From positions 576,001 to 640,000 of the forward strand of contig CP084166.1 in the NCBI GenBank assembly GCA_021513695.1: a stretch of DNA of 64,000 nucleotides, in the 5' to 3' direction. Below the pieces are notes generated by a model. The model was not told the DNA's origin, ran no database searches, and saw nothing but the letters and a program-made list of their open reading frames with translations. Below are positions 3,646-59,419 of this stretch, one piece after another. The position numbers and the translations under genes were made by a program. The stretch is from Candidatus Heimdallarchaeum aukensis. Its GTDB lineage: Archaea; Asgardarchaeota; Heimdallarchaeia; Heimdallarchaeales; Heimdallarchaeaceae. Every line of letters starts with the position of its first letter. Within the stretch, counting starts at the first letter, position 1.

Positions 3646-4056
3646 TTATTTTCTATTGTATTTTTCTGTTAGCATTCTTTTTAACCACAAATTTAGGAAT
3701 GAATTTAGTGAATCTCTACTTTCAGTATCTACCATGCTTTTTGATGGATAAACAACACTAAACAAATACTGATCTTTATAAGATAAAACTTCTGCAATTT
3801 TTTTTAATGAATCTATACGAATTACTACCTCTGGGTCAGGAACCAAATCATCATTTTGTAAAAAATAGTGACCCATTGATAGTATCATCTCGCTTTCATC
3901 ACGAGATAAAATACTAATATGTAACTCCATCAAATTTCCAGAATACAAAATTAGTTTTTCTTCAATTTCTTCAACATTTGGAATTAATTTCATCAAGAGG
4001 TCATAGTTTTTATGAAAGATAGTTTCAATTGTTGTAATTATCTGTTTATCTGACAC
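3646..4056 (-). CDS. Small protein resembling the DUF1249 (YqiB-like) family
   Basis: 136 aa. From memory it parallels YqiB: NYDLLMKLIP, a central VVIRID...IAEV segment and C-terminal LNSFLNLWLKRML. Lies 60 nt downstream of hsdR on the same strand. Confidence 0.4.
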   Translation of the reverse strand: MSDKQIITTIETIFHKNYDLLMKLIPNVEEIEEKLILYSGNLMELHISILSRDESEMILSMGHYFLQNDDLVPDPEVVIRIDSLKKIAEVLSYKDQYLFSVVYPSKSMVDTESRDSLNSFLNLWLKRMLTEKYNRK

Positions 4057-4116
4057 AATAATAATAATTAAGATTAGTTTAAAAATACCAAAAATAAATT
4101 ATGAACGCATGAGATA

Positions 4117-7100
4117 TTACACCGCTGTTGCCCACTCTTCACCAAACAACTGTGCTTGCTCCATTATTAATTTAATCGCATTAGGAGTTTGATCTGGTGG
4201 ATATTTATACTTTCGCAATAGTTTACGAATCTCAATACGCATGCGAGCTTGAACACTTTTTCTTACTGTGAAATCAATTGTAGCAGAATTTCGAACCTTA
4301 GCAACTAACTCTTTTGCTATTTTCTTTAATGTTTCATCACCCATTTCTCTTACAGCACTTTCATTTGTAGCTAAAGCATCATAAAAAGCAACTTCATCAT
4401 CATTTAATCCAAGTTCTTCTCCCTTTTTGAAAGCTTTTTGCATATCTTTCGCTAATTGAATCAATTCCTCTAAAATTGCAGCAGAAGCTATTGTACGATT
4501 GATATATTTGTTAATAGATTTCTGAAGTAATTCCTCAAAAGAACGAGATTGAACTAAATTCTTTTTAGCTCTAGAACGAATTTGATCCTTCAACAATTTA
4601 TTTAAAACCTCAACAGCTAAATTCTTTTGTTTTAATCCTCTAACTTCTTCAAGAAATTTATCAGAAAGAATAGAAATTTCTGGTTTATCCAATCCTGCTG
4701 CAGAAAAAATGTCTATAACATCTTCTGAAATAACAGCTCTAGAGATTAATTGTCTAATTGCATAATCAACTCTTTCTTTACGTTCTTTGGAAGGAGTAGT
4801 AGCTTTTACAAAACCAGCACGTACAGCTTGGAAAAAAGCTAAATCATCTCGAATAGCTAAAGCTTCTTCATGAGGAATAGCAAGAGAAAAGGCTTTATTT
4901 AGTGCTGAAAGGTTATCTAAAAACCTTTTTTTAGCACTTTCTGGAGTTTCATTAGGTAAATTAAGAATATGTTCCATAGCAGCAGGAAGTAATTGTAATC
5001 TTTGTAAAGCACTTCCTGTTTTAAACAAAGAATAATCAAAATTGTAAAACATATCTGAAACAATTTCATAATATGTTTTCATTAATTCTACAGCTTTTTC
5101 TTGAGGAATAGCTGTTTGTTCTCTTGACTCTACATTAGAATACCTAGATAATGCTTGCTTAAGAAAATAACCTATACCAATATAATCGACAATAAGACCT
5201 CCAGGTTTATCTTTATATACTCTATTTACTCTAGCTATCGCTTGCATTAAATTGTGTCCTTGCATTGGCTTATCTACATACATTGTATGCATACTAGGCA
5301 CATTAAAACCTGTTAACCACATATCTCTTACAATAACAAGTTTAAGTTCGTCCTCAGGATCTTTCATTCGATTTTCAATAATTTTTCTTTTTCTTTTAGG
5401 CCTAATGTGTGAACGCAATAATTGATCATCAGCAGCAGAACCGCTAATTACAACTTTAATGAAACCTTTTTGATCATCATTAGAATGCCACTCAGGCCTT
5501 AGTTTTATTATTTCATTATACAATAAAGCACAAATCCTGCGAGACATACAAACAATCATACCCTTTCCATCTATAATCTCAAGTCTTTTTTCAAAATGAT
5601 TTACAATATCCTCAGCTACTTCACGTAACCTATCGGGATCAGAAACAAGCCTTTCGACTCTTGACCACTTAGATTTCAATTTTTCTCGAGCATATTCTTC
5701 TTCATCTTCTGTGATTTCATCAAATTCTTCATCGATTTGACCCTTCAATTCTTCATTAAACTTAATTTTAACTAACCTTGATTCATAATAAATAGGAACA
5801 GTAGTTTTATCTCTTATTGCTTGTGAAATATCATAAATGCTAATATAATTACCAAAAACATGAATCGTATTTCTGTCGACAAGTTCTACAGGAGTAGCAG
5901 TAAAAGCAATAAAAGAAGCATTAGGCAGAGCTTGACGAATATAAGCAGCAAAACCTTCTTTTAATGAACCTTTTTCAGAAAGTTTTTTTCCAAAAGAATA
6001 ATGACTTCTATGAGCCTCATCAGCAATAACAATGATATTCCTCCTCTCAGATAAAAGAGGATATTGTGCATTCTCTTCAGGAAGAAATTTTTGTATTGTA
6101 GTGAAAATTACACCACCACCGGTTGTTTTAAGCAAATCCTCAATATTATCTTTTGTCGCTTCATGATTTTTTGGATTGTACCTCCTTGCTGTGGCTTGAA
6201 TAGAAGTTTGACGAAGAAGATCCCTTGATAAAGTAAAAGTTGTAAAAAGTTGGTCATCTAAATCGTTTCTATCAGTAATAACAACGACAGTAGGATTGTT
6301 AAGTAGCTGGATTAACTTTGCGGTATAAAATAACATTGTAAGACTCTTACCAGAACCTTGAGTATGCCAAACAACACCAATCTTTTGATCACCATCACTT
6401 CCAGTAGCTCGTAAAGTTTCCTTAATAGCACGATTAACAGCATGATATTGATGATAAGCAGCAGATTTCTTGACTATTGTTCTACCATCGTCTTCAAAAG
6501 TAATAAAAAATCTGATGTAATCTAAAAAACGAGAAGGTTCTAAAATACCACGAAATAAAACTTCAAGAGATAAGATTGATTGGTCAGCTAATATCTCTCC
6601 CTCAATAGTGCGCCAGGGAGTAAAACGCTCCCAATTAGCAGATAAACTGCCAGCTTTAGATTCATAACCATCACTAATAACAATTAACTCATTAGTCCTA
6701 AATAAAGAAGGAATTTCTTTTTTATAAGTCTGAATTTGATTATAAGCATCTCTTGTAGTCGTTTCTTCTTTAGATGGGTTCTTAAGCTCAATAACTACTA
6801 AAGGAATACCATTAACAAAGAGAACAATATCAGGTCGGTGATTGTGTTTGTCAGAACCAACACCTTCTATAACAGTAAATTGATTTACAGCTAAAAAATC
6901 ATTATTCTCAGGATTCTCAAAATCAATAACTCGTACTATATCTCCCTTTACACGACCATCATGGTAATAAGAGACTTCTACACCATCAACTAACATTCTA
7001 TGAAAAGAACGATTGTTTGTTAATAAATCAGGAGAATCAATACGGTTGAGTTTCTGCAAAACATCTTCAAGCACTTCTTTAGGTTTATCAGGATTAAGTT

Positions 7101-7272
7101 TATGTAAAGCTGATTTTAGTCTATCTTTAAGAATAATCTCACTATATGATAACCTTTCAGGATTATTTCCTGTTGGTGCAATATCTGGACCAAACTTGGT
7201 ATCATAACCTAATTCTCTTAAAATTTCCATAGATGCTTCTTCTAACTCTTTTTCAGTTATTTTCATAATCAA
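4117..7272 (-). CDS. hsdR: Type I restriction enzyme, R (endonuclease/translocase) subunit
   Basis: 1051 aa. N-terminal PD-(D/E)xK nuclease motif (PDIVLFVNGIPLVVIELKN). Helicase motif I (TQGSGKSLT) and motif II (IADEAHRSH). Long helical C-terminal region typical of HsdR. Confidence 0.95.
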   Translation of the reverse strand: MIMKITEKELEEASMEILRELGYDTKFGPDIAPTGNNPERLSYSEIILKDRLKSALHKLNPDKPKEVLEDVLQKLNRIDSPDLLTNNRSFHRMLVDGVEVSYYHDGRVKGDIVRVIDFENPENNDFLAVNQFTVIEGVGSDKHNHRPDIVLFVNGIPLVVIELKNPSKEETTTRDAYNQIQTYKKEIPSLFRTNELIVISDGYESKAGSLSANWERFTPWRTIEGEILADQSILSLEVLFRGILEPSRFLDYIRFFITFEDDGRTIVKKSAAYHQYHAVNRAIKETLRATGSDGDQKIGVVWHTQGSGKSLTMLFYTAKLIQLLNNPTVVVITDRNDLDDQLFTTFTLSRDLLRQTSIQATARRYNPKNHEATKDNIEDLLKTTGGGVIFTTIQKFLPEENAQYPLLSERRNIIVIADEAHRSHYSFGKKLSEKGSLKEGFAAYIRQALPNASFIAFTATPVELVDRNTIHVFGNYISIYDISQAIRDKTTVPIYYESRLVKIKFNEELKGQIDEEFDEITEDEEEYAREKLKSKWSRVERLVSDPDRLREVAEDIVNHFEKRLEIIDGKGMIVCMSRRICALLYNEIIKLRPEWHSNDDQKGFIKVVISGSAADDQLLRSHIRPKRKRKIIENRMKDPEDELKLVIVRDMWLTGFNVPSMHTMYVDKPMQGHNLMQAIARVNRVYKDKPGGLIVDYIGIGYFLKQALSRYSNVESREQTAIPQEKAVELMKTYYEIVSDMFYNFDYSLFKTGSALQRLQLLPAAMEHILNLPNETPESAKKRFLDNLSALNKAFSLAIPHEEALAIRDDLAFFQAVRAGFVKATTPSKERKERVDYAIRQLISRAVISEDVIDIFSAAGLDKPEISILSDKFLEEVRGLKQKNLAVEVLNKLLKDQIRSRAKKNLVQSRSFEELLQKSINKYINRTIASAAILEELIQLAKDMQKAFKKGEELGLNDDEVAFYDALATNESAVREMGDETLKKIAKELVAKVRNSATIDFTVRKSVQARMRIEIRKLLRKYKYPPDQTPNAIKLIMEQAQLFGEEWATAV

Positions 7273-8092
7273 TTTCCGCCAAAAATTTTTCTATATTAGT
7301 AATTCGAAGCCTACCTGAGATAAGTTGAGGAAGTAGAATATCTCTTAATTTAATTAAAATATTAATTTCATCCTTATTTTTTCTAATTTTTTCAAAGATT
7401 GGGTCAATTATTTCTCTAAACTTTAGTAAAGTAGTCTTATCAGGTTTTATAATCGGAATCCTAAAAAGGTTACTTTGATTAATTTTTAATTGTACTGCAC
7501 CAGTTATATAAGGTCTAATGTTTATATTCATGAGATGTAACATAACAAATTCTGTACAAAATTCATTTTTTCCTTGTATTACATGAACATGATTATTCGC
7601 CCAAAATTTTCCATGTACATATTGTAAGATGGGTTTTTCATTGTTATCAATAACTGAACCATCTTCTGCCATTAAGAGAAAAATGCCATCAAAAATGTAA
7701 TCATCAATATAGTCTAAAATACTAGCTGCCCCATAATATGGATAAATACCTTTTCTTACCTTTCTTTCTATTTTTGATAAAGGAATTCTTTTTGAATCAT
7801 ATATACTTATGACTTCTTTGAGCGTCCCAACTTCCCATCCTTTTGGTATTTCTTTATCTACTTCCTCATTATATTCAAATTCGCCATCTTTGAAAGGTTC
7901 AAAATCAATAAACCAAGATCTGAAGATAGTTTGGGCTATCTCTTCTAAAACTTTGTTCATCTTCTGATTGAGTTCAATTTTTTGATCTATAGAGCTTAAT
8001 AATTTACTAATAAATTTTTGTATTCTTAAATTAGGTATAGGAAGTGGGATATTTTCAATAATTGAGGTATTTAAGGAAGGTCTAGTAGTACC
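7253..8092 (-). pseudogene. hsdS: 5'-truncated type I R-M specificity subunit (central conserved region + TRD2 + C-terminal conserved region only)
   Basis: The listed ORF 7253..7960 begins in the central conserved region (FRSWFIDFEPF). I translated upstream and the frame stays open to 8092 (GTTRPSLNTSIIENIPLPIPNLRIQKFISKLLSSIDQKIELNQK). It stops exactly at the IS left inverted repeat. Overlaps the hsdR start by 20 nt. Confidence 0.8.
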
Positions 8093-8855
8093 GGTAGTGT
8101 CTAGTTTTCTTCCGACAAAAATATTTGTGGGGACTCTAATAGTAAGATATGAACATTCAAAAACTATCTACTCTTTTTAAGAGATGCAGAGTCCCCAAAA
8201 AAATAATAATAAAAGCTATTTATGAATATATTGGTTCAAAGAATGGGTTGAGGACAGTAGCATGGAAGAATGGTTTAACGCATCAAACATTATGGTATTG
8301 GGTAAAGAAGTTCAGGCTCTTTAGGGAAAGTTTACATAGAGTTGTAGCAGAGAGAGGGGGAATACCAGAGATTATAGTAGTAGATGAAACAGAGATTAGG
8401 ACCTCTCAAGGCTCAATATATCTGTGGTTCGCGTTAGATCCTTACAACAAGACTTTACTGGGTTTTAGTATTACTAAAGGACGGAGTAATCTTGAATGTT
8501 TACTAACTTTCCGTTATTGGCTCAAATGTTGGGGTTTTAAGCCTCGTATTGTCGTTACAGATGCAGGAGTATGGTATCCTGTCTTACTTCGTCTAGGTAT
8601 CAAAATCTCCGTTATCAAAGGTGGTTTACGCTCCTATATTGAACGTTTTAATGCTACTCTTAAGAGTTATCGTTGGTTTCATTCTATTCTCCACTGCACT
8701 TGTCCTATCCGTGCCGTCTATGGCTCTACTCATCTTTCTGGTTTTCTTACTCTCTTTATGCTCTATTATAATTTCGTTCGTCCTCATCAGAGCTTAGGAC
8801 ATCCTCCCCTTAGTTCCTTTTTACCTAGGAGGTGGTATAAAAACTAGACACTACC
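8093..8855 (+). mobile_element. IS6-family-like insertion sequence (763 bp)
   Basis: Perfect 16-bp terminal inverted repeats, GGTAGTGTCTAGTTTT at 8093-8108 and its reverse complement at 8840-8855. Single transposase ORF. Size, GG-starting IRs and DDE layout fit IS6. Flanks (GTAGTACC / AGTCAAAA) show no target-site duplication. Confidence 0.8.
8149..8847 (+). CDS. DDE transposase (IS6-like) with N-terminal HTH
   Basis: 232 aa. Candidate DDE triad in VVDETEI, VVTDAGVWY and YIERFNATLK. The stop codon lies inside the right IR. Confidence 0.8.
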   Translation: MNIQKLSTLFKRCRVPKKIIIKAIYEYIGSKNGLRTVAWKNGLTHQTLWYWVKKFRLFRESLHRVVAERGGIPEIIVVDETEIRTSQGSIYLWFALDPYNKTLLGFSITKGRSNLECLLTFRYWLKCWGFKPRIVVTDAGVWYPVLLRLGIKISVIKGGLRSYIERFNATLKSYRWFHSILHCTCPIRAVYGSTHLSGFLTLFMLYYNFVRPHQSLGHPPLSSFLPRRWYKN

Positions 8856-9122: not shown

Positions 9123-9524
9123 ATGCGTGGTGGAGGAAGAGGAAGAGGAGGAGGATTTGGATTAGGAGCAGGAGGAGCATGTATTTGTCCAGTGTGTGGT
9201 ACAAAAGCTGCTCATGCAAGAGGGGTACCTTGTTTTCAATCTCGATGCCCACAATGTGGAGCACCAATGACTAGAGCAGAAGCTTATGCCGGCCCCCAAC
9301 CACAGAATAGTAAAAACGTACAAGAAGAGAAAGAATACAAATTTGATACAGCAGCAAAACCGCATATAGACCAATCTAGATGTAAGGGGTGTGCTTTATG
9401 CATTAATAGTTGTCCTTTTAATGTTATTAGAATGGAAAATGGTCATGCAATTATTGATTCTTCACGCTGCAGAAGTTGCGGAGTATGTATTTCTTCTTGT
9501 CCTGAAGGGGCGATAGTTTATTAG
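9123..9524 (+). CDS. 2x[4Fe-4S] ferredoxin-domain protein with Gly/Arg-rich N-terminus and a 4-Cys zinc-ribbon-like segment
   Basis: MRGGGRGRGGGFGLGAGG, then CICPVCG..x..CPQCG, then CKGCALCINSCP and CRSCGVCISSCP. Locally purine/GC-rich start in an AT-rich genome. Confidence 0.7.
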   Translation: MRGGGRGRGGGFGLGAGGACICPVCGTKAAHARGVPCFQSRCPQCGAPMTRAEAYAGPQPQNSKNVQEEKEYKFDTAAKPHIDQSRCKGCALCINSCPFNVIRMENGHAIIDSSRCRSCGVCISSCPEGAIVY

Positions 9525-9556
9525 AAAATGTAAAAAAAAATTAAAAAATACTCTTT

Positions 9557-9934
9557 TTATATTTTTAGTGGATCAATAATTATACTTTCTTTATCAAAAG
9601 TTGCCAAGTAAAAGTCTTCTGTTAAAGTGAGACAACCAGTTGGACAAATATCTTGACATAGTGCACAGAAGCAACATTTTCCTAAATCTATTTGTGGATA
9701 AGTTTTTGGGTATTTCTCTTTATATTCTTCTTTTACTTCTACCATCTTTATCGCTTTATTTAAACAAATTTTGGCACAAGATCCACAAGAGATGCAGTTA
9801 TCGATGTCAAACTTATGTTTTGCTCTCTCTCTTTCTGATATCTCTACTTTCTCCATTGGAAAAAGAACAGTCATTGGTCTTTTGAACAAATTCTTGAATA
9901 TTTCTGAAATAATACTTAGTTTCATTGTTATCAC
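9557..9934 (-). CDS. 2x[4Fe-4S] subunit of a complex-I/group-4-hydrogenase-like module (NuoI/MbhN/EchF-like)
   Basis: CISCGSCAKIC and CCFCALCQDICP motifs. Starts 2 nt after the upstream NuoD-like gene ends. Confidence 0.8.
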   Translation of the reverse strand: MITMKLSIISEIFKNLFKRPMTVLFPMEKVEISERERAKHKFDIDNCISCGSCAKICLNKAIKMVEVKEEYKEKYPKTYPQIDLGKCCFCALCQDICPTGCLTLTEDFYLATFDKESIIIDPLKI

Positions 9935-9935
9935 C

Positions 9936-11048
9936 TCATCTATCTACATCAGCAGGACATTGGTTTAAACTCCAATAAATAGCAGGGACGTCAGCATAAT
10001 AAGAATCAGTAAGTAAATGCTTTAAAATAGGTATCATGTGAGTAAAAGAAGGTCCTCTGATCTTAACTCTATAAGGAGTCTTTTTTCCTGTAGCAATCAT
10101 ATAAATAGCTCCTTCTCCTCTTGATAGTTCATTACGTGTATAGGTTTCTCCTTTAGCTTTGCGGAAGTGAACAATAGGTTTCATATTAGACGTTTTTACT
10201 TCCCCTTTTGGCATTCTGTCAATTGCTTGCTTAACTATCTTCTTGCTTTCTTCTATTTCTTGCATAGCTATCAAATATCTTGAATAAGCATCTCCTTCAT
10301 CAAAAACTGGAATTTCAAACTCCAATTCATCATAAATTTCATAAGGATCATCTCTTCTAACATCTGAAGCAACCCCGCTAGCCCTTAAAATAGGTCCTGT
10401 TGCACCTAGTTTAATAGCTTCTTCTTTCGTTAACACTCCTACTTCTTTGAATCTTTCCAACCATACAGGATTTTCTTTTTTTGCGAATTTATGCATATAG
10501 TCAATCTTTTCAAATAAAGTAAGAATCTTTTTTTCTGCTTTCTCTGGTAAATCTTTTCTTACTCCTCCAGGGCAGATATATCCAGCTGGATAAAGTCTTC
10601 CTCCAGTAATATAATCGAACACATCTAGCATATAGTCTCTGTATCCCATTGCAACATTAAATCCAGTAGTAAATCCTGTTCCCATTGACATTACAGCGTA
10701 CCATATAAAGTGCGATTGTATTCTTGACAGTTCTGCAAGTATAACTCTGATGTATTTAGCTCTTTCTGGGATATCATAACCCATTAAAGTATCAACAGCT
10801 TCTGCATGGAGAAGATTCCACTGAAGAGGTTCTAAAACACATATTCTATCTGATAATACAGAGTTTTGCATTGGTTCTCTATATTCCATTAACTTCTCAA
10901 AACCCCTATGTAAATATCCTGGATCAACTACAGCTTTCATCACTCTTTCTCCACGAAGCTGAACTCTCACTGAAAAGTTTCCTGAACCAGGGTGAGCTGG
11001 TCCAAAGTACATTTCAAAATCTCCTTGTCTTTCTTCTATTTCAGTCAT
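9936..11048 (-). CDS. NuoD / [NiFe]-hydrogenase large-subunit-like protein with degenerate metal site
   Basis: 370 aa. GPAHPGSG, GYLHRGFEKL. RICVLE where hydrogenases have RxCGxC. C-terminus NQCPADVDR where hydrogenases have DPCxxCxxR. Confidence 0.85.
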   Translation of the reverse strand: MTEIEERQGDFEMYFGPAHPGSGNFSVRVQLRGERVMKAVVDPGYLHRGFEKLMEYREPMQNSVLSDRICVLEPLQWNLLHAEAVDTLMGYDIPERAKYIRVILAELSRIQSHFIWYAVMSMGTGFTTGFNVAMGYRDYMLDVFDYITGGRLYPAGYICPGGVRKDLPEKAEKKILTLFEKIDYMHKFAKKENPVWLERFKEVGVLTKEEAIKLGATGPILRASGVASDVRRDDPYEIYDELEFEIPVFDEGDAYSRYLIAMQEIEESKKIVKQAIDRMPKGEVKTSNMKPIVHFRKAKGETYTRNELSRGEGAIYMIATGKKTPYRVKIRGPSFTHMIPILKHLLTDSYYADVPAIYWSLNQCPADVDR

Positions 11049-11593
11049 TTTTTCACCTCAAAATAAATATCTTCTCGGGGATTACTTTCATCATAATATT
11101 CTTGTTGTACATATTTTCGCCAGTCGAAGTCCTTTCTAAACGGAGGAGGGCCAGTCCAGTCTTCCAACATTAGTGGAGTAAGATTAACGTTTCCTTCAAA
11201 AATCACGCCATAAAACTCATGGCATTCTCTTTCACATAATTCTGCATTTTTACTCCATAGAGAAGTAACAGAAGATATTGTAGGATTTTCTCTATTTATC
11301 CTTGTTTTTATCGTTAAAAGCATTTTTTCTTTATAGGACCATAAATGGTAAGCAATTTCAAAATTATTCTTTTCAATCCAATCTGTAACACTTATTGTAG
11401 AAAGATGTTCAAAACCCATATCATAAGCAATCGAACAAGCATCTACTATTTCTTTAGGTTCAATAGATACCCAAAGTCTTTTTTTTCTTTGGATATTAAC
11501 CTTCTTGTTTAATTTCTTACTTAAAGCCGTTACAATTTTTTCTTCTTTATCCAAATTATTCTTCTCTTTCTCTACTACACTCATTTTACTCAC
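11045..11593 (-). CDS. NuoC / MbhK / EchD-like 30-kDa subunit
   Basis: ERECHEFYGVIFEGN motif. 4-nt overlaps with both neighbours indicate translational coupling. Confidence 0.8.
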   Translation of the reverse strand: MSKMSVVEKEKNNLDKEEKIVTALSKKLNKKVNIQRKKRLWVSIEPKEIVDACSIAYDMGFEHLSTISVTDWIEKNNFEIAYHLWSYKEKMLLTIKTRINRENPTISSVTSLWSKNAELCERECHEFYGVIFEGNVNLTPLMLEDWTGPPPFRKDFDWRKYVQQEYYDESNPREDIYFEVKK

Positions 11594-12030
11594 TCATCCG
11601 GCATTCCATGAACATGTTGAACTATTTTGAAAACAGCATCAAAAACAGCTTCAGGTCTGGGAGGACAACCAGGAATATACATGGTTACAGGAAGATAATC
11701 TTCAAGCTTCTTAACAGTGTTATATGAATCCCAATACATCCCACCTGTTATTGGACATGAACCCAATGCTAAGACAAACTTTGGATCAGGCATTTGCTCA
11801 TAAATCTTTTGTGCTCTCTTCATTGATTTTGGTGTCTGAAAACCAGCAATAAACAACACATCAGCCTTTCTTGGTGAATTAACTGTTATCATTCCAAAAC
11901 GTTCCATATCCCATCTTGAACCTACAACTGGAACAAGTTCAGTAAATCCACAAGAGTTAAACCAATTAAAAACCCAAATAGCTTTTACAAAATATTTCAT
12001 CACAGTTTTCTTCTTAACCATCCTTTCCAC
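11590..12030 (-). CDS. NuoB / hydrogenase small-subunit-like protein
   Basis: GSCPITGG and PGCPPRPE motifs. The first cluster motif reads NSCGFTE, so only one Cys where CxxC or CC is expected. Confidence 0.85.
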   Translation of the reverse strand: MERMVKKKTVMKYFVKAIWVFNWFNSCGFTELVPVVGSRWDMERFGMITVNSPRKADVLFIAGFQTPKSMKRAQKIYEQMPDPKFVLALGSCPITGGMYWDSYNTVKKLEDYLPVTMYIPGCPPRPEAVFDAVFKIVQHVHGMPDE

Positions 12031-31983: not shown

Positions 31984-32547
31984 ATGACAGAAAAACAGTT
32001 TATTTTCAAAATTGTACTTATTGGTGATGGCGCAGTAGGAAAAACTTCTATTAGAATGCAATATATGGGATACGGATTCAATACCAGTCATCTTATGACC
32101 CTGGGAGCAGATTTTTCATCTATTGATAAAGAAATTATTCCTAACGAAAAATGGAAATTTCAAATTTGGGATTTAGCAGGACAACAAATGTTTGAACAAG
32201 TTCGAGCTCGTTTTTACAAAGGAGCTCAGGGTGCCTTACTTGTCTTTGATATCACTCGCCCTTCCTCTTTTCAAAACCTTCCCATGTGGTTAAACGAATT
32301 GTATAAATTCAACGGATCAGGAGTTGTCCCTGTTGTAGTCCTTGCTAATAAGAGTGATTTGAGAGATAGAAAAAGTGTTAAATTCAAACATGTAGAAAAA
32401 TATGTTTCTGAATTAAATCTGCGTACCCAACGCTATGGTGTAACTAATTATTGTTTAGAAACAAGTGCCAAGACTGGATTAAACATCGATAGAGCTTTTG
32501 AAATTCTCGGGAGAAGCATTCGAGATAAATCAAGCAAAAAAACATAA
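31984..32547 (+). CDS. Ras/Rab-like small GTPase with canonical G1-G5 motifs
   Basis: GDGAVGKTS (G1), TLGADF (G2), WDLAGQQ (G3), NKSD (G4), SAK (G5). No C-terminal Cys lipidation motif. The track ORF starts at TTG 31975; I prefer ATG 31984. Confidence 0.9.
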   Translation: MTEKQFIFKIVLIGDGAVGKTSIRMQYMGYGFNTSHLMTLGADFSSIDKEIIPNEKWKFQIWDLAGQQMFEQVRARFYKGAQGALLVFDITRPSSFQNLPMWLNELYKFNGSGVVPVVVLANKSDLRDRKSVKFKHVEKYVSELNLRTQRYGVTNYCLETSAKTGLNIDRAFEILGRSIRDKSSKKT

Positions 32548-32628
32548 TACCCAATACATTAATTTTTTATACTTTAAGTGATTCTTTTAAGTATATACTA
32601 ATAAACGAAAGATTCTGAGGAAAAACCA

Positions 32629-33195
32629 ATGCTCACATTTAAGATCCTTTTTATAGGCGATAATAGCGTAGGTAAAACTACTTTATTTAAAAAAATTGTT
32701 CAAAATGAAAAAAATAAAGAAAAGATCCCTTCTCTAAAAGCAGAAATAGTAAAAGTTTATCGTACAATCCAAGGAGAAGAAGTAGCTTTTGAACTATATG
32801 ATTTACCTGCGAGAGAACTTTTATCATCTCCTCAAAGAACAAAATGGTATTTAGGGACTGATGGAGCGTTTATAGTTTTTGACATTACAAAAGCAGAAAC
32901 GTTCAGAAGAGTAACATTCTGGCTAGAACAATTAATAAATTATAACAGAAAAGGGAAGATACCTATAGTATTAGTAGGTAATAAAATAGATATGAGAGAC
33001 AATCCTAATGTGAGAAATAGGACACTAAACCCTATAGATGCTCAAGCTTTCTGTCTTCGACTAAATCGTACATCAGCTAGAGAAGGAATTAATAATGAAT
33101 TCTTCGAAGTCTCAGCAATCTCAGGGAAAGGTTTAACTCAATTACTTGATGCATTAGCTAAAAATATTTATAACCATCACAAAAAAATAAAATAG
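32629..33195 (+). CDS. Divergent small GTPase-like protein with degenerate switch I/II
   Basis: GDNSVGKTT (G1), NKID (G4) and SAI (G5) are retained. G3 reads YDLPARE instead of DxxGQ, and no switch-I Thr is evident. Confidence 0.8.
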   Translation: MLTFKILFIGDNSVGKTTLFKKIVQNEKNKEKIPSLKAEIVKVYRTIQGEEVAFELYDLPARELLSSPQRTKWYLGTDGAFIVFDITKAETFRRVTFWLEQLINYNRKGKIPIVLVGNKIDMRDNPNVRNRTLNPIDAQAFCLRLNRTSAREGINNEFFEVSAISGKGLTQLLDALAKNIYNHHKKIK

Positions 33196-33825: not shown

Positions 33826-35067
33826 TTGAGTATGAAATATTGCACAAAATGTGGAACAAAAACACCAGAAGATGCAGTTTTTTGTTATGTATGTGGAACA
33901 AAAATTGATGATCTATCTGTTGATTTACAAAAATCAACAAAGGACAAAGTAAGCGATCACAGACATTACTATCCTCACTCTTCACAACAAATAGATGATA
34001 AATACTACAAAGATTATACCCACAAAGAACACGTTTTTCTTAAAATCTTAGCTATTGTCTTTATAATTGGAATGATCACTGCTTCTATTTCTTTATTTGC
34101 TGTTTTCAGCTCTTTCAGAATGGATGTCATTGGTACTCAAAATTACTATTTAGAAGAAGCAAACTCTAATGAAGTTTTTCTAAATATTTACAACGGTATT
34201 GGAGACATAGACATTATCTTTACTGATGATACAGACATAATGGTCGAAATAAATGTAATCGTATTAGGCAGAAAAAATGTTGATGAGTCAGAATTTGCGG
34301 AATTTAAAATAAATGATTATGAGAAAAATCTTACCATTGAGTTTGATTCTGGAGAACAAATCTTTTCTTTCTTTAATAAGAAAATTCTTGAATATGATAT
34401 TAGCATTACTTTAAACTCTAAACTAGTTCTATATGCAGATGTTCAGATGGAAACGGGAGACTTTTACTTGGACATCAATTGCCAAACAGCTAATATAAAC
34501 AATTTAAATATTGTAACAAAGACAGGTGATGTTAGCATTTATGCATATTCCACGGAAAATGTAACAATCAACAACGTATATCTAGTTTCCACAACTGGAC
34601 AAATTCAGTTTAGTTTAAGTGATGAAGGAGCAAATTACATCAGCAATGTATTTGCAACCACAACCACAGGAAAAATATTTTTCGATTTTGGTAGGAATAG
34701 TATATACAATGGAAATGAAATAGAACTTACAACAACTACAGGAAAAATAGTCCTATACTGCACTAACATGCAATATTTAGAAAATGTTACTTGGTTAATT
34801 TCTACAAGTACAGGTTCGGTTTATGCAAATATCACTCAAGATTTTATCATTGAAAAACAATTACAAATTTCTTTCTTTATTACAGTTAATACTGGGTCAA
34901 TAGAAATTCTTGCTGAATTCCACGATGATATTGGTTACCTTTTCGAAGCAACAACTGATACTGGAACAATTACAATTCCTGAACAATCTCCAAATTATGA
35001 TACTGCTTTAAACAAGTATTATTTTTCCTTAAGCACTGACACTGGAAACATAATGGCAGAATTGTAA
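33826..35067 (+). CDS. Zinc-ribbon / TM / DUF4097-like beta-helical (putative adhesin) protein
   Basis: CTKCGTK..CYVCGTK, one TM helix, then repeated TxTG(D/K/S)I motifs (TKTGDVSI, TTTGQIQF, TTTGKIFF, TTTGKIVL, STSTGSVY, VNTGSIEI, TDTGTITI, TDTGNIMA). Confidence 0.6.
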   Translation: MSMKYCTKCGTKTPEDAVFCYVCGTKIDDLSVDLQKSTKDKVSDHRHYYPHSSQQIDDKYYKDYTHKEHVFLKILAIVFIIGMITASISLFAVFSSFRMDVIGTQNYYLEEANSNEVFLNIYNGIGDIDIIFTDDTDIMVEINVIVLGRKNVDESEFAEFKINDYEKNLTIEFDSGEQIFSFFNKKILEYDISITLNSKLVLYADVQMETGDFYLDINCQTANINNLNIVTKTGDVSIYAYSTENVTINNVYLVSTTGQIQFSLSDEGANYISNVFATTTTGKIFFDFGRNSIYNGNEIELTTTTGKIVLYCTNMQYLENVTWLISTSTGSVYANITQDFIIEKQLQISFFITVNTGSIEILAEFHDDIGYLFEATTDTGTITIPEQSPNYDTALNKYYFSLSTDTGNIMAEL

Positions 35068-46017: not shown

Positions 46018-48018
46018 ATGAAAAGTTTTTTACCTAAATTTCTGCTTAATGAAATCGATCTTTATTTAGATGATTCTCAGAAGTCTATTTTTGAAGAGAA
46101 GGTTAAAAGTATTGTAAGTAATGCTTCTGACTATGATACGATTTCCAAGGACATTACTGCCTTTCTTTTGAATGAAGATTTTACTGATTTAACGACTTAT
46201 GATCAAATGCTTATTCTTGTTTCAATTCTTCTAAATTACTGGAAAAAGGATTATTCTCTTATTTTTAGCATCTATGACAAATTTCATTCTTTTGATTTAC
46301 CTCTTAGCGTTATGATTTGTTTTCTTCTATTTTTTCAAGAATCTTTTGATTTAACCACTTTTAACCTTTGGAGAGAGAAGATAGAAGAGTACATTACAAA
46401 CATTTCTGATTCTACTGAAAAAGAATTTCTTAAAACTGCTATTGAGCAATTTGCTTCTAAGCTTGAGCAAAGGCCTGAGGTTGGTTATCGTTCTATGAAT
46501 CAGCTTATTCGTTCTCTTGAGGAGAATGAGCATATTTCTTATCGATATCCTTTTGTTTTCGAGGCTTTAGAGATTGATCTTATTCAGTACTCTAACATTT
46601 TAGCTGATGAAGTTTTTTCTGAAATCTGGATTGAGTCCGCTAGAAGAAGAGCTGAAGTTATGGAAAACTATGGCATGTTAGTTCAAGTTAACAGCCTTCT
46701 TGCTAGTATTTTAGTTAAAGAGTATCATCTTGAAAAAGCTAAAGAGAAAATTGAGGAGGGGTTAGAGATTGCTAAGAGGATCAATTCTCCTATTTTAGCT
46801 GCTCAAATTGAGTTGAACAAGGCCTTGTTATTGAAGATGCAAGGTAAGTTGGACGAAGCTTTGAAGTTATATGAAAAAATTGCTAAAGTTAAGAATCTTC
46901 CTCAAACTTTTCAATTGGATATTTACAGTAAAATAGGTGAAATTTATCTCAACAAGGACGAGATAGTTAAAGCTGAAGAATACTACCTTAAAGCTCACGA
47001 GATTAATAAGAAACTTAATTTTATCAATCCTCTTGTTGAAATAGTTATAGGTTACATTAACCTGATTTTAGAGAAAGATAAGGGGGAAGCTTTAGATGAG
47101 GGGTTGAAGATTGCTGAAGAACAGTTTGATTTTTCTTCTATTCCTTACTACTACTTCTACAAAGGTATTTATGAGCAACAAAGGGTTAACTTATCCTTAT
47201 CTATTGAATACCTTGAACAAGCTTTGAACTCTTTTGAGCACCAAAAGAACTTTGAGGGTATTGTTTATACTAACGGTGCATTGGCAGAGTCTTATCTTCA
47301 GATTTACAAGCTTCTTCACGATAACAAATATTCTTCTCGGTTCCTCTATTATATTGACAATCTTATTGAAATACTAAAGGAGTTAAACAATCCTTTGTAT
47401 GTTGAAGCAATAAAGACTAAAGCAGGTTACTATTTAGATAAAGGTTTAATTAAAAATGCTGAAGATCTGTTTATTGATGGAATAGAATTTGCTAGGACAC
47501 GAGGATTAAAAGAGGAAGAAATATATCTTAAGGAATCGCTTACTAACAAGAAGAATTTAACAAAAATAACTTTAGAAGGTACTCAAATACTCTTTAGAAA
47601 AATAAGGATGTTCAGCTTTGGTAAGCATAAAACTGTTCCCACCAAATTATACTTACTTTTAGCCATTAATGAAGCTGGAATTCCTTTAGTTTCTCACTCT
47701 TTTACTGAAGAAGAGATGGTAGATGATCTTTTAGTTTCAGGGTTAATTTCAGCTATAATTAATTTCTCTTCTGAAGTTCTAGGAAAAGGAGGAGAAACCT
47801 TACGATCAATAAATCATGAGGGCAAAGCTGTTATAGTAGAGAAAAAGGACAATGTGATGGGTATCTTAGTTGCTGAAGATGAGAATTTCGAGATGAGACT
47901 GGAACTTAGACAGTTTTTGCAGAAAGCGCTTGATAAGTTAGTTTCTGGACTTCCTATTGTCAGAGAAAACGACAGTGAGATTTTTTCTATTATAGAAGAA
48001 GTTTTTGAGAGAAAATAA
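46018..48018 (+). CDS. TPR-rich scaffold protein with C-terminal longin (Bet5/sybindin-like) / roadblock-type domain
   Basis: 666 aa. Helical/TPR repeats through about residue 520. C-terminal KLYLLLAINEAGIPLVSHSF..DDLLVSGLISAIINFSSEVL..INHEGKAVIVEKKDNVMGILV. Confidence 0.75.
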   Translation: MKSFLPKFLLNEIDLYLDDSQKSIFEEKVKSIVSNASDYDTISKDITAFLLNEDFTDLTTYDQMLILVSILLNYWKKDYSLIFSIYDKFHSFDLPLSVMICFLLFFQESFDLTTFNLWREKIEEYITNISDSTEKEFLKTAIEQFASKLEQRPEVGYRSMNQLIRSLEENEHISYRYPFVFEALEIDLIQYSNILADEVFSEIWIESARRRAEVMENYGMLVQVNSLLASILVKEYHLEKAKEKIEEGLEIAKRINSPILAAQIELNKALLLKMQGKLDEALKLYEKIAKVKNLPQTFQLDIYSKIGEIYLNKDEIVKAEEYYLKAHEINKKLNFINPLVEIVIGYINLILEKDKGEALDEGLKIAEEQFDFSSIPYYYFYKGIYEQQRVNLSLSIEYLEQALNSFEHQKNFEGIVYTNGALAESYLQIYKLLHDNKYSSRFLYYIDNLIEILKELNNPLYVEAIKTKAGYYLDKGLIKNAEDLFIDGIEFARTRGLKEEEIYLKESLTNKKNLTKITLEGTQILFRKIRMFSFGKHKTVPTKLYLLLAINEAGIPLVSHSFTEEEMVDDLLVSGLISAIINFSSEVLGKGGETLRSINHEGKAVIVEKKDNVMGILVAEDENFEMRLELRQFLQKALDKLVSGLPIVRENDSEIFSIIEEVFERK

Positions 48019-57493: not shown

Positions 57494-59419
57494 TTAATTA
57501 ATATATGTTAGAATGAAAGAATCTTGTATAAGATCTTCTATTTTCTTTTCTTCTATTTTGTCAAAAAACTTACCTGTTTTTGGAATGGAAGTTAGTTTAT
57601 GCCATAATTCCTCGAATTTTCCAATGTTATTAACAAAGTTATCTATCTTTTTATTGGCAGTGAAAGAAGAGCCTTTGAACACATAACAAAAGATTATTCC
57701 TTCCTTGTTTTTGAACGTCAAAAAGTAGTCATGATATTCTACTTGCTTGATTGAACCTTCTGTTGCTAAAACCTCTTTTAATATGTTATTTAAAGCAGAA
57801 AGGAATCCTGAAAATAGAATACTGTCATATTTCTCCTCACTAAAGTTATAACTGTAAAGTGGTATTCCATGTTCATTTAGAATAAGCAACATAACTGGAG
57901 TGTCTTTTTCTATTACTTCGAGTTCGTAGCTAACCCTTTGTATCATCTGCGAAACTAAAGTGTCAACTTGTGTTTTTTCTATTCTTTTCTTTATACTCAC
58001 ATCAGAATTAAGAATTGCTTTCCATTTATTATGTTCTCTTACAATTGAATCATATTCTAAACTTATTTTTTGAGCTAAATTGTCTAATCCTTGAGAAAAA
58101 GCTATCTCCTGCGCTTTTAATAAATCCTCTTGAGCTTCATCAAGATTTAGTTGAATTAGATTAATCTTTCCTTTTAACCAGTAAGCTTCTGCTAAGAGAG
58201 ACCTAGATATTTGCATTTCTGCAATTTTTAATAGCTGAATGTTTATATCCTTTAGTTCATCTATAATTTCGCTTTCATTAAAAATAGTAAGCTCTTCTAG
58301 CAATATTTCAGTAAGGTTTAACATCGCATGAATATTTATCTCATTGTAAATTTCATTCGTTCTAATAATAGAATGAAGAAGAGAGATAGCTTTCGCTTGT
58401 GAAACAAATCTTTTTCGCTCTTTTAATACACTTGCTTCTGTTAGTTTAGCATAAAAACTCAAAAACTTGTTTTTTTCCTTTCTAGATAATTTTTTTAATT
58501 CTTTCAAGTATTCCTGAGCTTTCGATATTTGCCCTAGTAAAATGTGTAACTTAGTCAAATAATAGGTGGATTCAGCTATAATATAGTTAAATTTAACTAA
58601 TTTTGCATAATTTATACTTTTATCGAAAAAATCTAAAGCTAGATTAAACTCTCCTTTACTGAAATAAACGATGCCTATATTATTGAAAACTTGTGAAATT
58701 CCAAAAATATTTTCTTTTTCTTGATAGTTAATTAAAGCATCGTTATATAGTTCAACCGCTTTATTTAGATTTCCTTTTAATCTATAAATCTCACCTATAG
58801 AAATTAAAGTATTGTTAATTATTTGCTTCGAGTTTAAAAATTCACCATAAACAAGACACTCTTCAAAACAAGCAAGGCTTTGATTTAGATTTCCTTTTTG
58901 GGCATTTATTTTTCCTTCTCTATATTTTAAAAAAGCATAAATTTTGGTCTCATTCTTCTCTTTAACTAATTGTAAAGATTTTTTTACTAAATTCAGTGCT
59001 CGTGGTAGATCTTTATAGATAACCAGTAAAGCTTGGCAGAGATTGAAAATGGCATTAACTTCATTTTTATCTTTCTTAATTACCTTTGATTTTGTTTTTT
59101 TGAAGTGTAATAAAATTTCTTCACTTTTTTTGTTTTGTGATAAAAGGAGAGAAAAAACCTCTATCAAATAATAGTAAACATAGAAATCATTAGCCATAAG
59201 TTCTTTCTCATTTTCAAGGTAACTTAAAAGTTGAAGGCCAAATACTTTGCAATCCTCTACTTTACCAAACTCATAAGCTGTTTCAACTTTGTGATTTAAT
59301 AAACTTCTTTTTTCAATTGAAGGTTGTTTTCTCTCTTCTTCATGGTTATTTATTTGGGTAATAATTTCAGAATATTTGGTTGAATCTAGAATTTTTTCGT
59401 TTTCTATGAAATCTATCAC
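57494..59419 (-). CDS. TPR-rich scaffold protein with C-terminal longin (Bet5/sybindin-like) / roadblock-type domain (paralog of 46018..48018)
   Basis: 641 aa. TPR repeats (IGEIYRLKGNLNKAVELY, IGIVYFSKGEFNLALDFF ...). C-terminal VMLLILNEHGIPLYSYNFSEEKYDSILFSGFLSALNNILKEVL..VEYHDYFLTFKNKEGIIFCYVF. Confidence 0.75.
   Translation of the reverse strand: MIDFIENEKILDSTKYSEIITQINNHEEERKQPSIEKRSLLNHKVETAYEFGKVEDCKVFGLQLLSYLENEKELMANDFYVYYYLIEVFSLLLSQNKKSEEILLHFKKTKSKVIKKDKNEVNAIFNLCQALLVIYKDLPRALNLVKKSLQLVKEKNETKIYAFLKYREGKINAQKGNLNQSLACFEECLVYGEFLNSKQIINNTLISIGEIYRLKGNLNKAVELYNDALINYQEKENIFGISQVFNNIGIVYFSKGEFNLALDFFDKSINYAKLVKFNYIIAESTYYLTKLHILLGQISKAQEYLKELKKLSRKEKNKFLSFYAKLTEASVLKERKRFVSQAKAISLLHSIIRTNEIYNEINIHAMLNLTEILLEELTIFNESEIIDELKDINIQLLKIAEMQISRSLLAEAYWLKGKINLIQLNLDEAQEDLLKAQEIAFSQGLDNLAQKISLEYDSIVREHNKWKAILNSDVSIKKRIEKTQVDTLVSQMIQRVSYELEVIEKDTPVMLLILNEHGIPLYSYNFSEEKYDSILFSGFLSALNNILKEVLATEGSIKQVEYHDYFLTFKNKEGIIFCYVFKGSSFTANKKIDNFVNNIGKFEELWHKLTSIPKTGKFFDKIEEKKIEDLIQDSFILTYIN

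Follow-up and report, generated by a model that had tools for sequence, protein, structure and literature searches.

In this study, we analyzed a stretch of 64,000 nucleotides (nt) from Candidatus Heimdallarchaeum aukensis (contig CP084166.1, positions 576,001 to 640,000; hereafter, the window), and we report two adjacent small GTPase genes, named G1 and G2, which form a conserved Rab-like gene pair specific to the family Heimdallarchaeaceae. The product of G1 is, as judged by its motifs, an ordinary Rab-like GTP/GDP switch. That of G2 has the fold and the family homology of the Ras superfamily, but by its sequence it is a non-canonical member: its family is defined by the lack of the catalytic Gln, mostly in favor of Arg or Lys, together with a bulky residue at the position of Ras Gly12. 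By analogy with the Rnd and RhoH proteins, we propose impaired GTP hydrolysis and insensitivity to GTPase-activating proteins (GAPs) as the most likely state of G2, with a probability of about one half. In the public records, the only labels given to genes of both types are "GTP-binding protein" and "Rab family GTPase," and our literature search turned up no description of either the pair or the G2 family.

All five G motifs are canonical in G1, namely GDGAVGKT, Thr39 within TLGADF, WDLAGQQ (D63-Q67), NKSD (122-125), and SAK (161-163). This agrees with the initial annotation of the window, which had been made from the letters alone, and with the match of the protein to the Pfam Ras family (PF00071; E-value 4e-40, 137.4 bits over a cut-off of 21.6, model positions 1-161 of 162). 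The closest solved relatives of G1 were Rab8A (6e-32) and the Thorarchaeota Rab 7ezb (9e-31). Its orthologues were 61-96% identical and all G motifs were invariant among them. In addition, RabF-like motifs were recognizable, and the Rab-like stretches LGADF, FQIWDLAGQ, FYKGA, and LVFDIT were kept. The mechanical list of open reading frames (ORFs) opened G1 9 nt upstream, at a TTG; the ATG start was used here.

G2 also matched Pfam Ras over model positions 1-161 of 162 (6e-26, 91.3 bits, same cut-off) and aligned with G1 at 29% identity (9e-31). Its motifs read GDNSVGKT, YDLPARE, NKID, and SAI (162-164), and in the HMMER alignment to Rab structures DLPARE fell on DTAGQE. Both the sequence and this alignment bear out the earlier statement that gene 2 keeps the P-loop, NKID, and SA and reads YDLPARE in switch II. 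In the P-loop and in switch I, the residues of G2 have the same numbers as in H-Ras, whereas in switch II the G2 number is higher by one; in Ras terms, its substitutions are G12N, T35S, A59P, G60A, and Q61R. When the five motifs of a canonical GTPase were considered, the P-loop, G4, and G5 were kept, while Ser35 stood for Thr and DLPA for DxxG. The initial annotation had reported that gene 2 lacks an obvious switch-I Thr; the Thr is indeed absent, although the position is altered to Ser35 and not simply missing.

The closest solved sequence relatives of G2 were RabA1a and Rab35 (~1e-16), the top match being an engineered RabA1a Q72K crystallized with unhydrolysed GTP (PDB 5xr7). The AlphaFold2 model of G2, built with 87 aligned sequences, had a predicted local distance difference test score (pLDDT) of 93.1 and a predicted template modeling score (pTM) of 0.90, and its best structural matches were Rab10, Rab2, Rab32, Rab8, Rab11, Rab4, and Rab7. 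Thus, for G1 and G2 alike, Pfam Ras was the top match and Asgard and eukaryotic Rabs (7ezb, Rab8, Rab2, Rab11) were the closest solved proteins. The extended loop between G4 and G5 is shared by both with many archaeal Rab-like proteins. G2 differs from the Rabs in having neither the catalytic Gln nor, in the window lineage, the DxxG Gly, in the Asn or Tyr at the G12 position, in the Ser at the switch-I Thr position and in a signature of its own, RTLNPID/RLNRT; of the RabF motifs, it keeps only a RabF5-like IVFDIT. As the initial annotation had stated, neither protein ends in a Cys; the tails, which were checked, are short and basic (...DKSSKKT in G1 and ...NHHKKIK in G2). One G2-family orthologue ends in ...SAVCD, which is not a CC, CXC, or CAAX box. 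The C-terminal prenylation Cys of eukaryotic Rabs is therefore absent from both, as it is from the Asgard Rabs.

A profile search of 1.84 billion representatives returned only two single-domain representatives above 200 bits, followed by a generic Rab-like plateau at ~100 bits, and in a 90%-clustered database 37 clusters scored above 220 bits, the next one being at 119 bits. All G2-family clusters with a named source came from Heimdallarchaeaceae or Heimdallarchaeota AB_125. It should be noted that the census of the family and of its neighborhoods was made on metagenomic contigs, which limit it. Among the GTDB representative genomes, searched with switch-II-based patterns that proved too specific to the DLPARE clade, only H. 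endolithica PR6 matched. Switch II read DIPGRE in 24 of the 37 clusters, DIPGKE in 4, DLPARE in 3, DFPRRE and DLPAGE in 2 each, and DIPGTE and DLPSRE in 1 each. The catalytic Gln was found at the Ras-Q61 position in none of them (0/37), and Arg or Lys in 34/37; Pro is found at the Ras-A59 position. The Ras-G12 position held Tyr in 26 of 36 clusters and N, P, W, G, T, or V in the others (non-Gly in 34/36), and the switch-I Thr position held Ser in at least 30 scorable clusters and Ala in two. The DxxG Gly was retained in 29/37 clusters and lost in 8/37, including that of the window. Since all outgroups have DxxG, this loss is probably a derived state. The crippled switch II of the initial annotation is thus a family-wide feature as regards the Gln, but a lineage-specific one as regards the Gly.

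The nucleotide-binding elements have been maintained. GK[ST] was kept in every G2 cluster in which the N-terminus was present, and GxxxxGK[ST], the Walker-B Asp, NKxD, and S[AS] were conserved throughout the family. The strongest family-specific conservation, in an alignment of 36 sequences, lay not in switch I but in the RTLNPID...RLNRT signature on the alpha3/alpha4 face, where the model places a helix (135-152) remote from the switch regions; such a conserved face would suit a partner surface independent of the nucleotide state.

With respect to gene order, G1 lies directly upstream of G2 in 13 distinct lineages. Conservation of the tandem had been named beforehand in the initial annotation as a test that could refute its proposal of a GTPase pair, and this was the outcome when it was run. 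The compared loci carry L numbers; L006, L008, and L009 are near-identical, and L002/L003, L081/82, L086/87, and L012/L007 each count as one lineage. From the G2 side, G1 directly preceded G2 in the window, L001, L002/L003, L004, L006 (together with L008 and L009), L011, L014, and L015. From the G1 side, a G2 orthologue was immediately downstream in 4/4 long-contig G1 orthologues (L078, L080, L081/82, and L083), and the AB_125-type locus L086/87 had the same G1-G2 order. At the protein level, the window locus is ~96% identical to L006, which belongs to Ca. H. endolithica PR6; this genome and the circular metagenome-assembled genome (MAG) of Ca. H. aukensis are those of Wu et al. 2022 (PMC8813620), and G1 is 100% identical to a protein of the latter. 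The G1-G2 junction was the only one never broken, whereas the junction of G1 with the upstream major facilitator superfamily (MFS) transporter gene and that of G2/YdjM with the aminotransferase gene were interrupted or rearranged in several lineages. PR6 and L078 have the proton-pumping pyrophosphatase (H+-PPase) gene at another place, L002 and L081 have additional genes between MFS and G1, and in L002 a different region has taken the place of the usual downstream one. No second GTPase follows two close G1 paralogues that are 55-58% identical to it. The single exception was the L012/L007 lineage, in which an Arf-like fusion GTPase occupies the place of G1 upstream of a DIPGRE-type G2. It is encoded at L012:687-1598 (+) and has 303 amino acids (aa), with an Arf-like G domain (Pfam Arf 1e-33) followed by a C-terminal domain of ~125 aa; the latter had no Pfam match and the same C-terminus is found at L007:1-105.

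G2 is a working, non-decaying gene under strong purifying selection. Its reading frame was intact in every complete family sequence recovered. Against L006, L008, and L009, the Nei-Gojobori ratio of nonsynonymous to synonymous substitutions (dN/dS) was 0.03-0.05 for G2, 0.02-0.03 for G1, 0.05-0.11 for YdjM, and 0.03-0.06 for MFS, which indicates that G2 encodes a working protein; between lineages, synonymous sites were saturated (dS >1). G2 is nevertheless the faster of the pair; compared with the window copies, the proteins encoded at the same loci outside the genus were 44-64% identical for G2 vs. 61-83% for G1. By BLAST score, G1 was on the same ~100-bit plateau as unrelated Rab-like proteins. 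In a rough neighbor-joining tree, a long branch led to G2, which fell, weakly supported, outside the canonical clade. The longer G4-G5 spacing common to both was considered as a synapomorphy of a tandem duplication and rejected, given that it is common among archaeal Rab-like representatives. From these sequences, G2 is not demonstrable as a sister paralogue of G1.

In Ras-like GTPases, Gln61 positions the attacking water and Gly12 leaves space for the arginine finger of a GAP, while the main-chain NH groups of Thr35 and Gly60 sense the gamma-phosphate and drive both switches. Ras proteins with Q61R/K or G12X are hydrolysis-defective, and G60A blocks the GTP-induced conformational change in Ras and G-alpha. 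As the P-loop Lys/Thr, the Walker-B Asp58, NKID, and SA are intact in G2, the protein is still predicted to bind guanine nucleotide. Its hydrolytic and switching apparatus would have been rebuilt through the change of Gln to Arg, the side chain at the G12 position, and the change of the switch-I Thr to Ser, to which the window lineage adds the replacement of the gamma-phosphate-sensing DxxG Gly by Ala. Such a GTPase would have a very low intrinsic activity and be insensitive to arginine-finger GAPs; it would stay nucleotide-loaded and serve as a constitutive adaptor or regulator instead of a timed switch. It would act in the pathway of G1 and, in the window lineage, probably at the membrane via the putatively co-transcribed YdjM-type protein encoded downstream; we infer in this way a coupling of G2 both to G1 and to YdjM. 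By comparison with the Ras variants, G2 is probably unable to cycle as a normal GTPase, and impaired hydrolysis with GAP insensitivity appears the most likely state because the window G2 combines all four kinds of change. In Rnd1-3, RhoH, and oncogenic Ras (G12X, Q61R/K), the same two positions are substituted as in G2 and the nucleotide-binding motifs are kept. RhoH and the Rnd proteins are GTPase-deficient through changes at the G12 position and in switch II, and they are constitutively GTP-bound, GAP-insensitive, and regulated by abundance (PMC13236570). The intact GTP in the RabA1a Q72K crystal is in line with the same picture. G2 differs from the Rnd and RhoH proteins in its Rab-like ancestry, its archaeal origin, the lack of a lipid anchor and its constant location beside another GTPase gene.

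Several points weigh against this reading. Some GAPs provide the catalytic residue in trans; TBC GAPs do so for Rabs, as does RapGAP for Rap. The spacers between G1 and G2 measure 48-188 nt and carry T-runs and TATA-like motifs, so the two genes may not be co-transcribed. In the window, where the spacer is exactly 81 nt (32548-32628), as initially annotated, there is a T6 run at 32563, 15 nt past the G1 stop; two TATA-like hexamers start at 32566 and 32592, and the ATG of G2 is preceded at 9 nt by a GAGG. These signals would suit a separate G2 promoter, but motifs of this sort are common at 31% guanine plus cytosine (GC). Moreover, broad synteny in the family extends to the entire block of ~10 kb (H+-PPase, MFS, G1, G2, aminotransferase, and P-type ATPase), and adjacency alone is for this reason a weak proof of functional coupling. 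The L012/L007 lineage has the Arf-like fusion GTPase instead of G1, and the largest G2 clade is without YdjM. Finally, the ROC domain of LRRK2, with an Arg at the Q61 position, still hydrolyses GTP, and this Arg has been reported to sense the gamma-phosphate and to aid catalysis (PMC13345514).

From this last case arises the alternative that survives best, although we consider it somewhat unlikely: G2 would be an active GTPase with a non-canonical mechanism, using either an Arg/Lys in cis, as R1398 of LRRK2 ROC, or a residue provided in trans by a GAP or by a dimer partner (perhaps G1, in a nucleotide-dependent G-domain dimer). The commonest switch II of the family, DIPGRE, with its Gly retained, parallels that of LRRK2, where Arg1398 is at the Ras-Q61 position and T1343 at the G12 position; the DIPGRE of the G2 family is a second, independent natural case. 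The basic residue has been held under selection in the 34 clusters mentioned above, and Roc was the second-best Pfam family for G2 (63.9 bits), below Ras. On the other hand, the window lineage has also lost the DxxG Gly (Ala61), the two DLPAGE clusters and the DIPGTE cluster have no basic residue, and the bulky Tyr at the G12 position is expected to hinder an arginine finger in trans. Besides, G2 is a stand-alone protein of ~185 aa without the COR, kinase, or repeat domains of LRRK2; past the G domain it has no sequence that could hold the COR domain which follows ROC in Roco proteins, and without COR the dimer/monomer logic of ROC is not simply transferable to it. By analogy with LRRK2, the G2 family may use a cis-arginine mechanism, the Gly-less window copy being the member least likely to do so. 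Regarding the initial proposal of a GTP-locked or pseudo-GTPase gene 2, its catalytically non-canonical switch II has been upheld, but the proposal is not the sole reading, given the hydrolysis by LRRK2 ROC.

A second alternative, which we regard as unlikely, is that the adjacency of G1 and G2 is inherited synteny without functional link, both being independent Rab-like genes of the large Heimdallarchaeial repertoire within a stable block. The conservation of unrelated neighbors (H+-PPase, MFS transporter, class-V aminotransferase, and P-type ATPase), the promoter- and terminator-like signals in the spacers, and the plateau-level BLAST score and weakly supported tree for G1 and G2 are in its favor, as is the fact that small GTPase genes of Prometheoarchaeum MK-D1 are generally outside operons with their regulators (PMC10933270). 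Nonetheless, G1 and G2 have not been split in 13 lineages despite saturated synonymous sites and repeated rearrangement of the flanks, another GTPase fills the slot where G1 is missing (L012), and no second GTPase comes after either of the two close paralogues of G1 that were sampled.

At the opposite extreme, G1 and G2 could be an obligate two-GTPase module invented in Heimdallarchaeaceae, a proposal that we hold to be quite unlikely. G2 would pair with G1 (or, in one lineage, with the Arf-like GTPase), making contact through its conserved alpha3/alpha4 face or across the nucleotide sites, and would set the nucleotide state or membrane address of G1, with YdjM as an anchor in some lineages. 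If true, it would be a roadblock-free archaeal counterpart of the paired GTPases of eukaryotes and would add another natural "arginine at Q61" mechanism to that of LRRK2.

An obligate heterodimer of the Rag or signal recognition particle/receptor (SRP/SR) type, with one active and one altered GTPase, as suggested by the initial annotation, is very unlikely. The pairing of a canonical and an altered GTPase is conserved, G1 has a weak-to-moderate match to Pfam Gtr1_RagA (2.6e-07, 30.8 bits), and an operonic Rag-like pair in MK-D1, predicted to heterodimerise (PMC10933270), is similar to G1/G2, as are Rag/Gtr, in having adjacent GTPase genes, one of them with a divergent nucleotide chemistry. However, Rag and Gtr proteins dimerise via C-terminal roadblock domains, whereas G1 and G2 are bare G domains of 187-188 aa that end right after helix alpha5 and resemble Rab more than Rag, and G2 had no Gtr1_RagA match; the Rag analogy accordingly fails. 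The same applies to SRP/SR, which are NG-domain GTPases of the SIMIBI class: no SRP54 or FtsY family was matched in Pfam, and G2 reached only a sub-threshold match to SRPRB (23.2 bits; cut-off 25). Nor did Pfam detect a longin or roadblock domain in any non-nested window ORF of at least 100 aa, which leaves the "three longin-domain proteins" of the initial annotation without support. Finally, the reading of G2 as a pseudogene in decay, or as a pseudoGTPase of class I that does not bind nucleotide, can practically be dismissed, since the altered switches I and II and the faster rate of G2, readable as degeneration, are outweighed by intact frames, a dN/dS of 0.03-0.05, a confident fold prediction, and the family-wide conservation of the P-loop Lys and Ser/Thr and of the guanine motifs, whose loss defines that class.

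Other known systems are of less help. According to PMC10731463, pseudoGTPase subunits of septins are kept with active paralogues in hetero-oligomers; septins are a different GTPase class, the likeness is only an analogy, and no evidence of septin-like polymerisation was found for G1 or G2. Compared with the MglA/MglB polarity module, G1 and G2 have an MFS transporter and YdjM as neighbors, and Robl_LC7/MglB had no Pfam match in the window. In NCBIfam, only the generic small_GTP domain was recognized. Among PADLOC defence models there was one marginal match to G2 (E 9e-4, 16.9 bits) and none to G1, YdjM or the zinc-ribbon protein encoded downstream, and membership of a defence system is not indicated.

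Asgard archaea encode dozens of eukaryote-like small GTPases, almost none of which can be matched to partners or regulators, since their genes are rarely in informative neighborhoods (PMC10933270). The pair described here is an exception, being a canonical-plus-atypical junction unbroken across a family among the closest archaeal relatives of eukaryotes. What is new is a lineage-restricted atypical GTPase of the Ras superfamily whose association with a canonical partner gene is unusually stable; the kind itself, that of the atypical GTPases, was already known, and if G2 were simply a GTPase-dead paralogue, it would be a modest addition to them. G1 and G2 are a cloneable pair, with the membrane protein in addition, for studying Rab-like regulation and membrane recruitment without lipid anchors in archaea. 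To our knowledge, an Arg at the Ras-Q61 position is currently studied only in LRRK2. The natural series DIPGRE, DIPGKE, DLPARE, DFPRRE, and DLPAGE bears on the role of this residue. The features of the locus are provided in Table 1; no ORF of at least 60 aa was found on the strand opposite to G1 and G2.

Table 1. Features of the G1-G2 locus (positions refer to the window)
Feature	Position	Strand	Details and basis
Gene 1 (G1), canonical Rab-like small GTPase	31984..32547	+	187 aa from ATG
G1 P-loop GDGAVGKT (G14-T21), Gly at Ras-G12 position	32023..32046	+	Sequence; invariant in five aligned G1 orthologues
G1 switch II DLAGQ, DxxG and catalytic Gln67 intact	32170..32184	+	Sequence; conserved in G1 family
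G1-G2 spacer, 81 nt, AT-rich, GC 0.23	32548..32628	+	Sequence
Gene 2 (G2), atypical Rab-like GTPase, 188 aa	32629..33195	+	Pfam Ras and AlphaFold2 model
G2 P-loop GDNSVGKT (G10-T17), Asn at Ras-G12 position	32656..32679	+	Sequence
G2 Ser35 at switch-I Thr position (Ras T35)	32731..32733	+	HMMER alignment to Rab structures
G2 switch II DLPARE (D58-E63; equivalent to Ras D57-E62)	32800..32817	+	Sequence and alignments
G2 G4 motif NKID (118-121), guanine specificity, retained	32980..32991	+	N118, K119, and D121 invariant in G2 alignments
G2 family signature RTLNPID...RLNRT, loop and helix alpha4 between G4 and G5	33019..33072	+	Alignment of 36 sequences; AlphaFold2 model
YdjM-family (PF04307) multi-pass membrane protein, 181 aa	33228..33773	+	Pfam YdjM 3e-12; 32 nt downstream of G2

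The YdjM protein of the window has at least four hydrophobic segments. Its gene follows G2 after a short spacer (18-32 nt in three lineages, the window among them), in which neither a T-run nor a TATA-like motif was found in the window copy, in line with the proposed link between the two genes. A YdjM gene was present after G2 in the window, L001, L002, L004, L006, L008, L010, L012, L007, and L078 and absent in L011, L080, L081, L083, and L086, which are five DIPG[RK]E lineages. It followed G2 in 6/6 sampled glycine-less lineages and in the L012 lineage, a correlation with the loss of Gly that is based on very few evolutionary events. Apart from L084, none of ~60 unrelated Ras-like loci had a YdjM gene. 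At L084:3001-3747 (+), a Rab-like paralogue of G1 (248 aa, 58% identity) is convergent to a divergent YdjM-like gene at 4008-4529 (-), recognized by hmmsearch (3e-30), which makes it a second Rab-like/YdjM neighborhood, outside the G2 family. In one Heimdallarchaeaceae MAG, G2 is followed by a tandem of YdjM paralogues (L001:2690-3889), which share 53 and 66% identity, respectively, with the YdjM of the window. The literature search gave no characterized function for the YdjM (PF04307/DUF457) family; a match to DUF4579 was a mere prefix match and was discarded as irrelevant.

Further downstream, the window contains at 33826-35067 (+) a gene whose product (413 aa) has a zinc ribbon at its N-terminus, one hydrophobic segment, and a weak match to the DUF4097 "toastrack" family. 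It is inserted between YdjM and the aminotransferase gene, where no such gene is found in L001, L004, or L012. In H. endolithica PR6, a fragment similar to the C-terminus of the MFS transporter (L006:7915-8195) is located downstream of YdjM, beside the relocated H+-PPase gene, and looks like a scar of the rearrangement that separates PR6 from the window. Degenerate catalytic motifs also occur in other archaeal Rab-like representatives that do not belong to the G2 family: P0121, with WDIAARE, is an independent case of DxxA-R-E, and P0071 has a GVGKA P-loop and is without DxxG.

Elsewhere in the window, three proteins with tetratricopeptide repeats (TPR) of 856, 666, and 641 aa are encoded at 43313-45883 (+), 46018-48018 (+), and 57494-59419 (-), respectively; their long N-termini had no Pfam match and, even at E-values up to 1, showed neither a longin nor a roadblock domain. 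A type I restriction-modification HsdR (1051 aa) at 4117-7960 (-) and an S subunit at 8149-8847 (+), beside an ORF with weak integrase-core (rve) matches, may form a mobile or defence islet. The region 9123-12030 encodes 4Fe-4S ferredoxin-like proteins and subunits similar to the 49-kDa, 30-kDa, and 20-kDa subunits of complex I, and is a membrane-bound hydrogenase or complex-I-like module.

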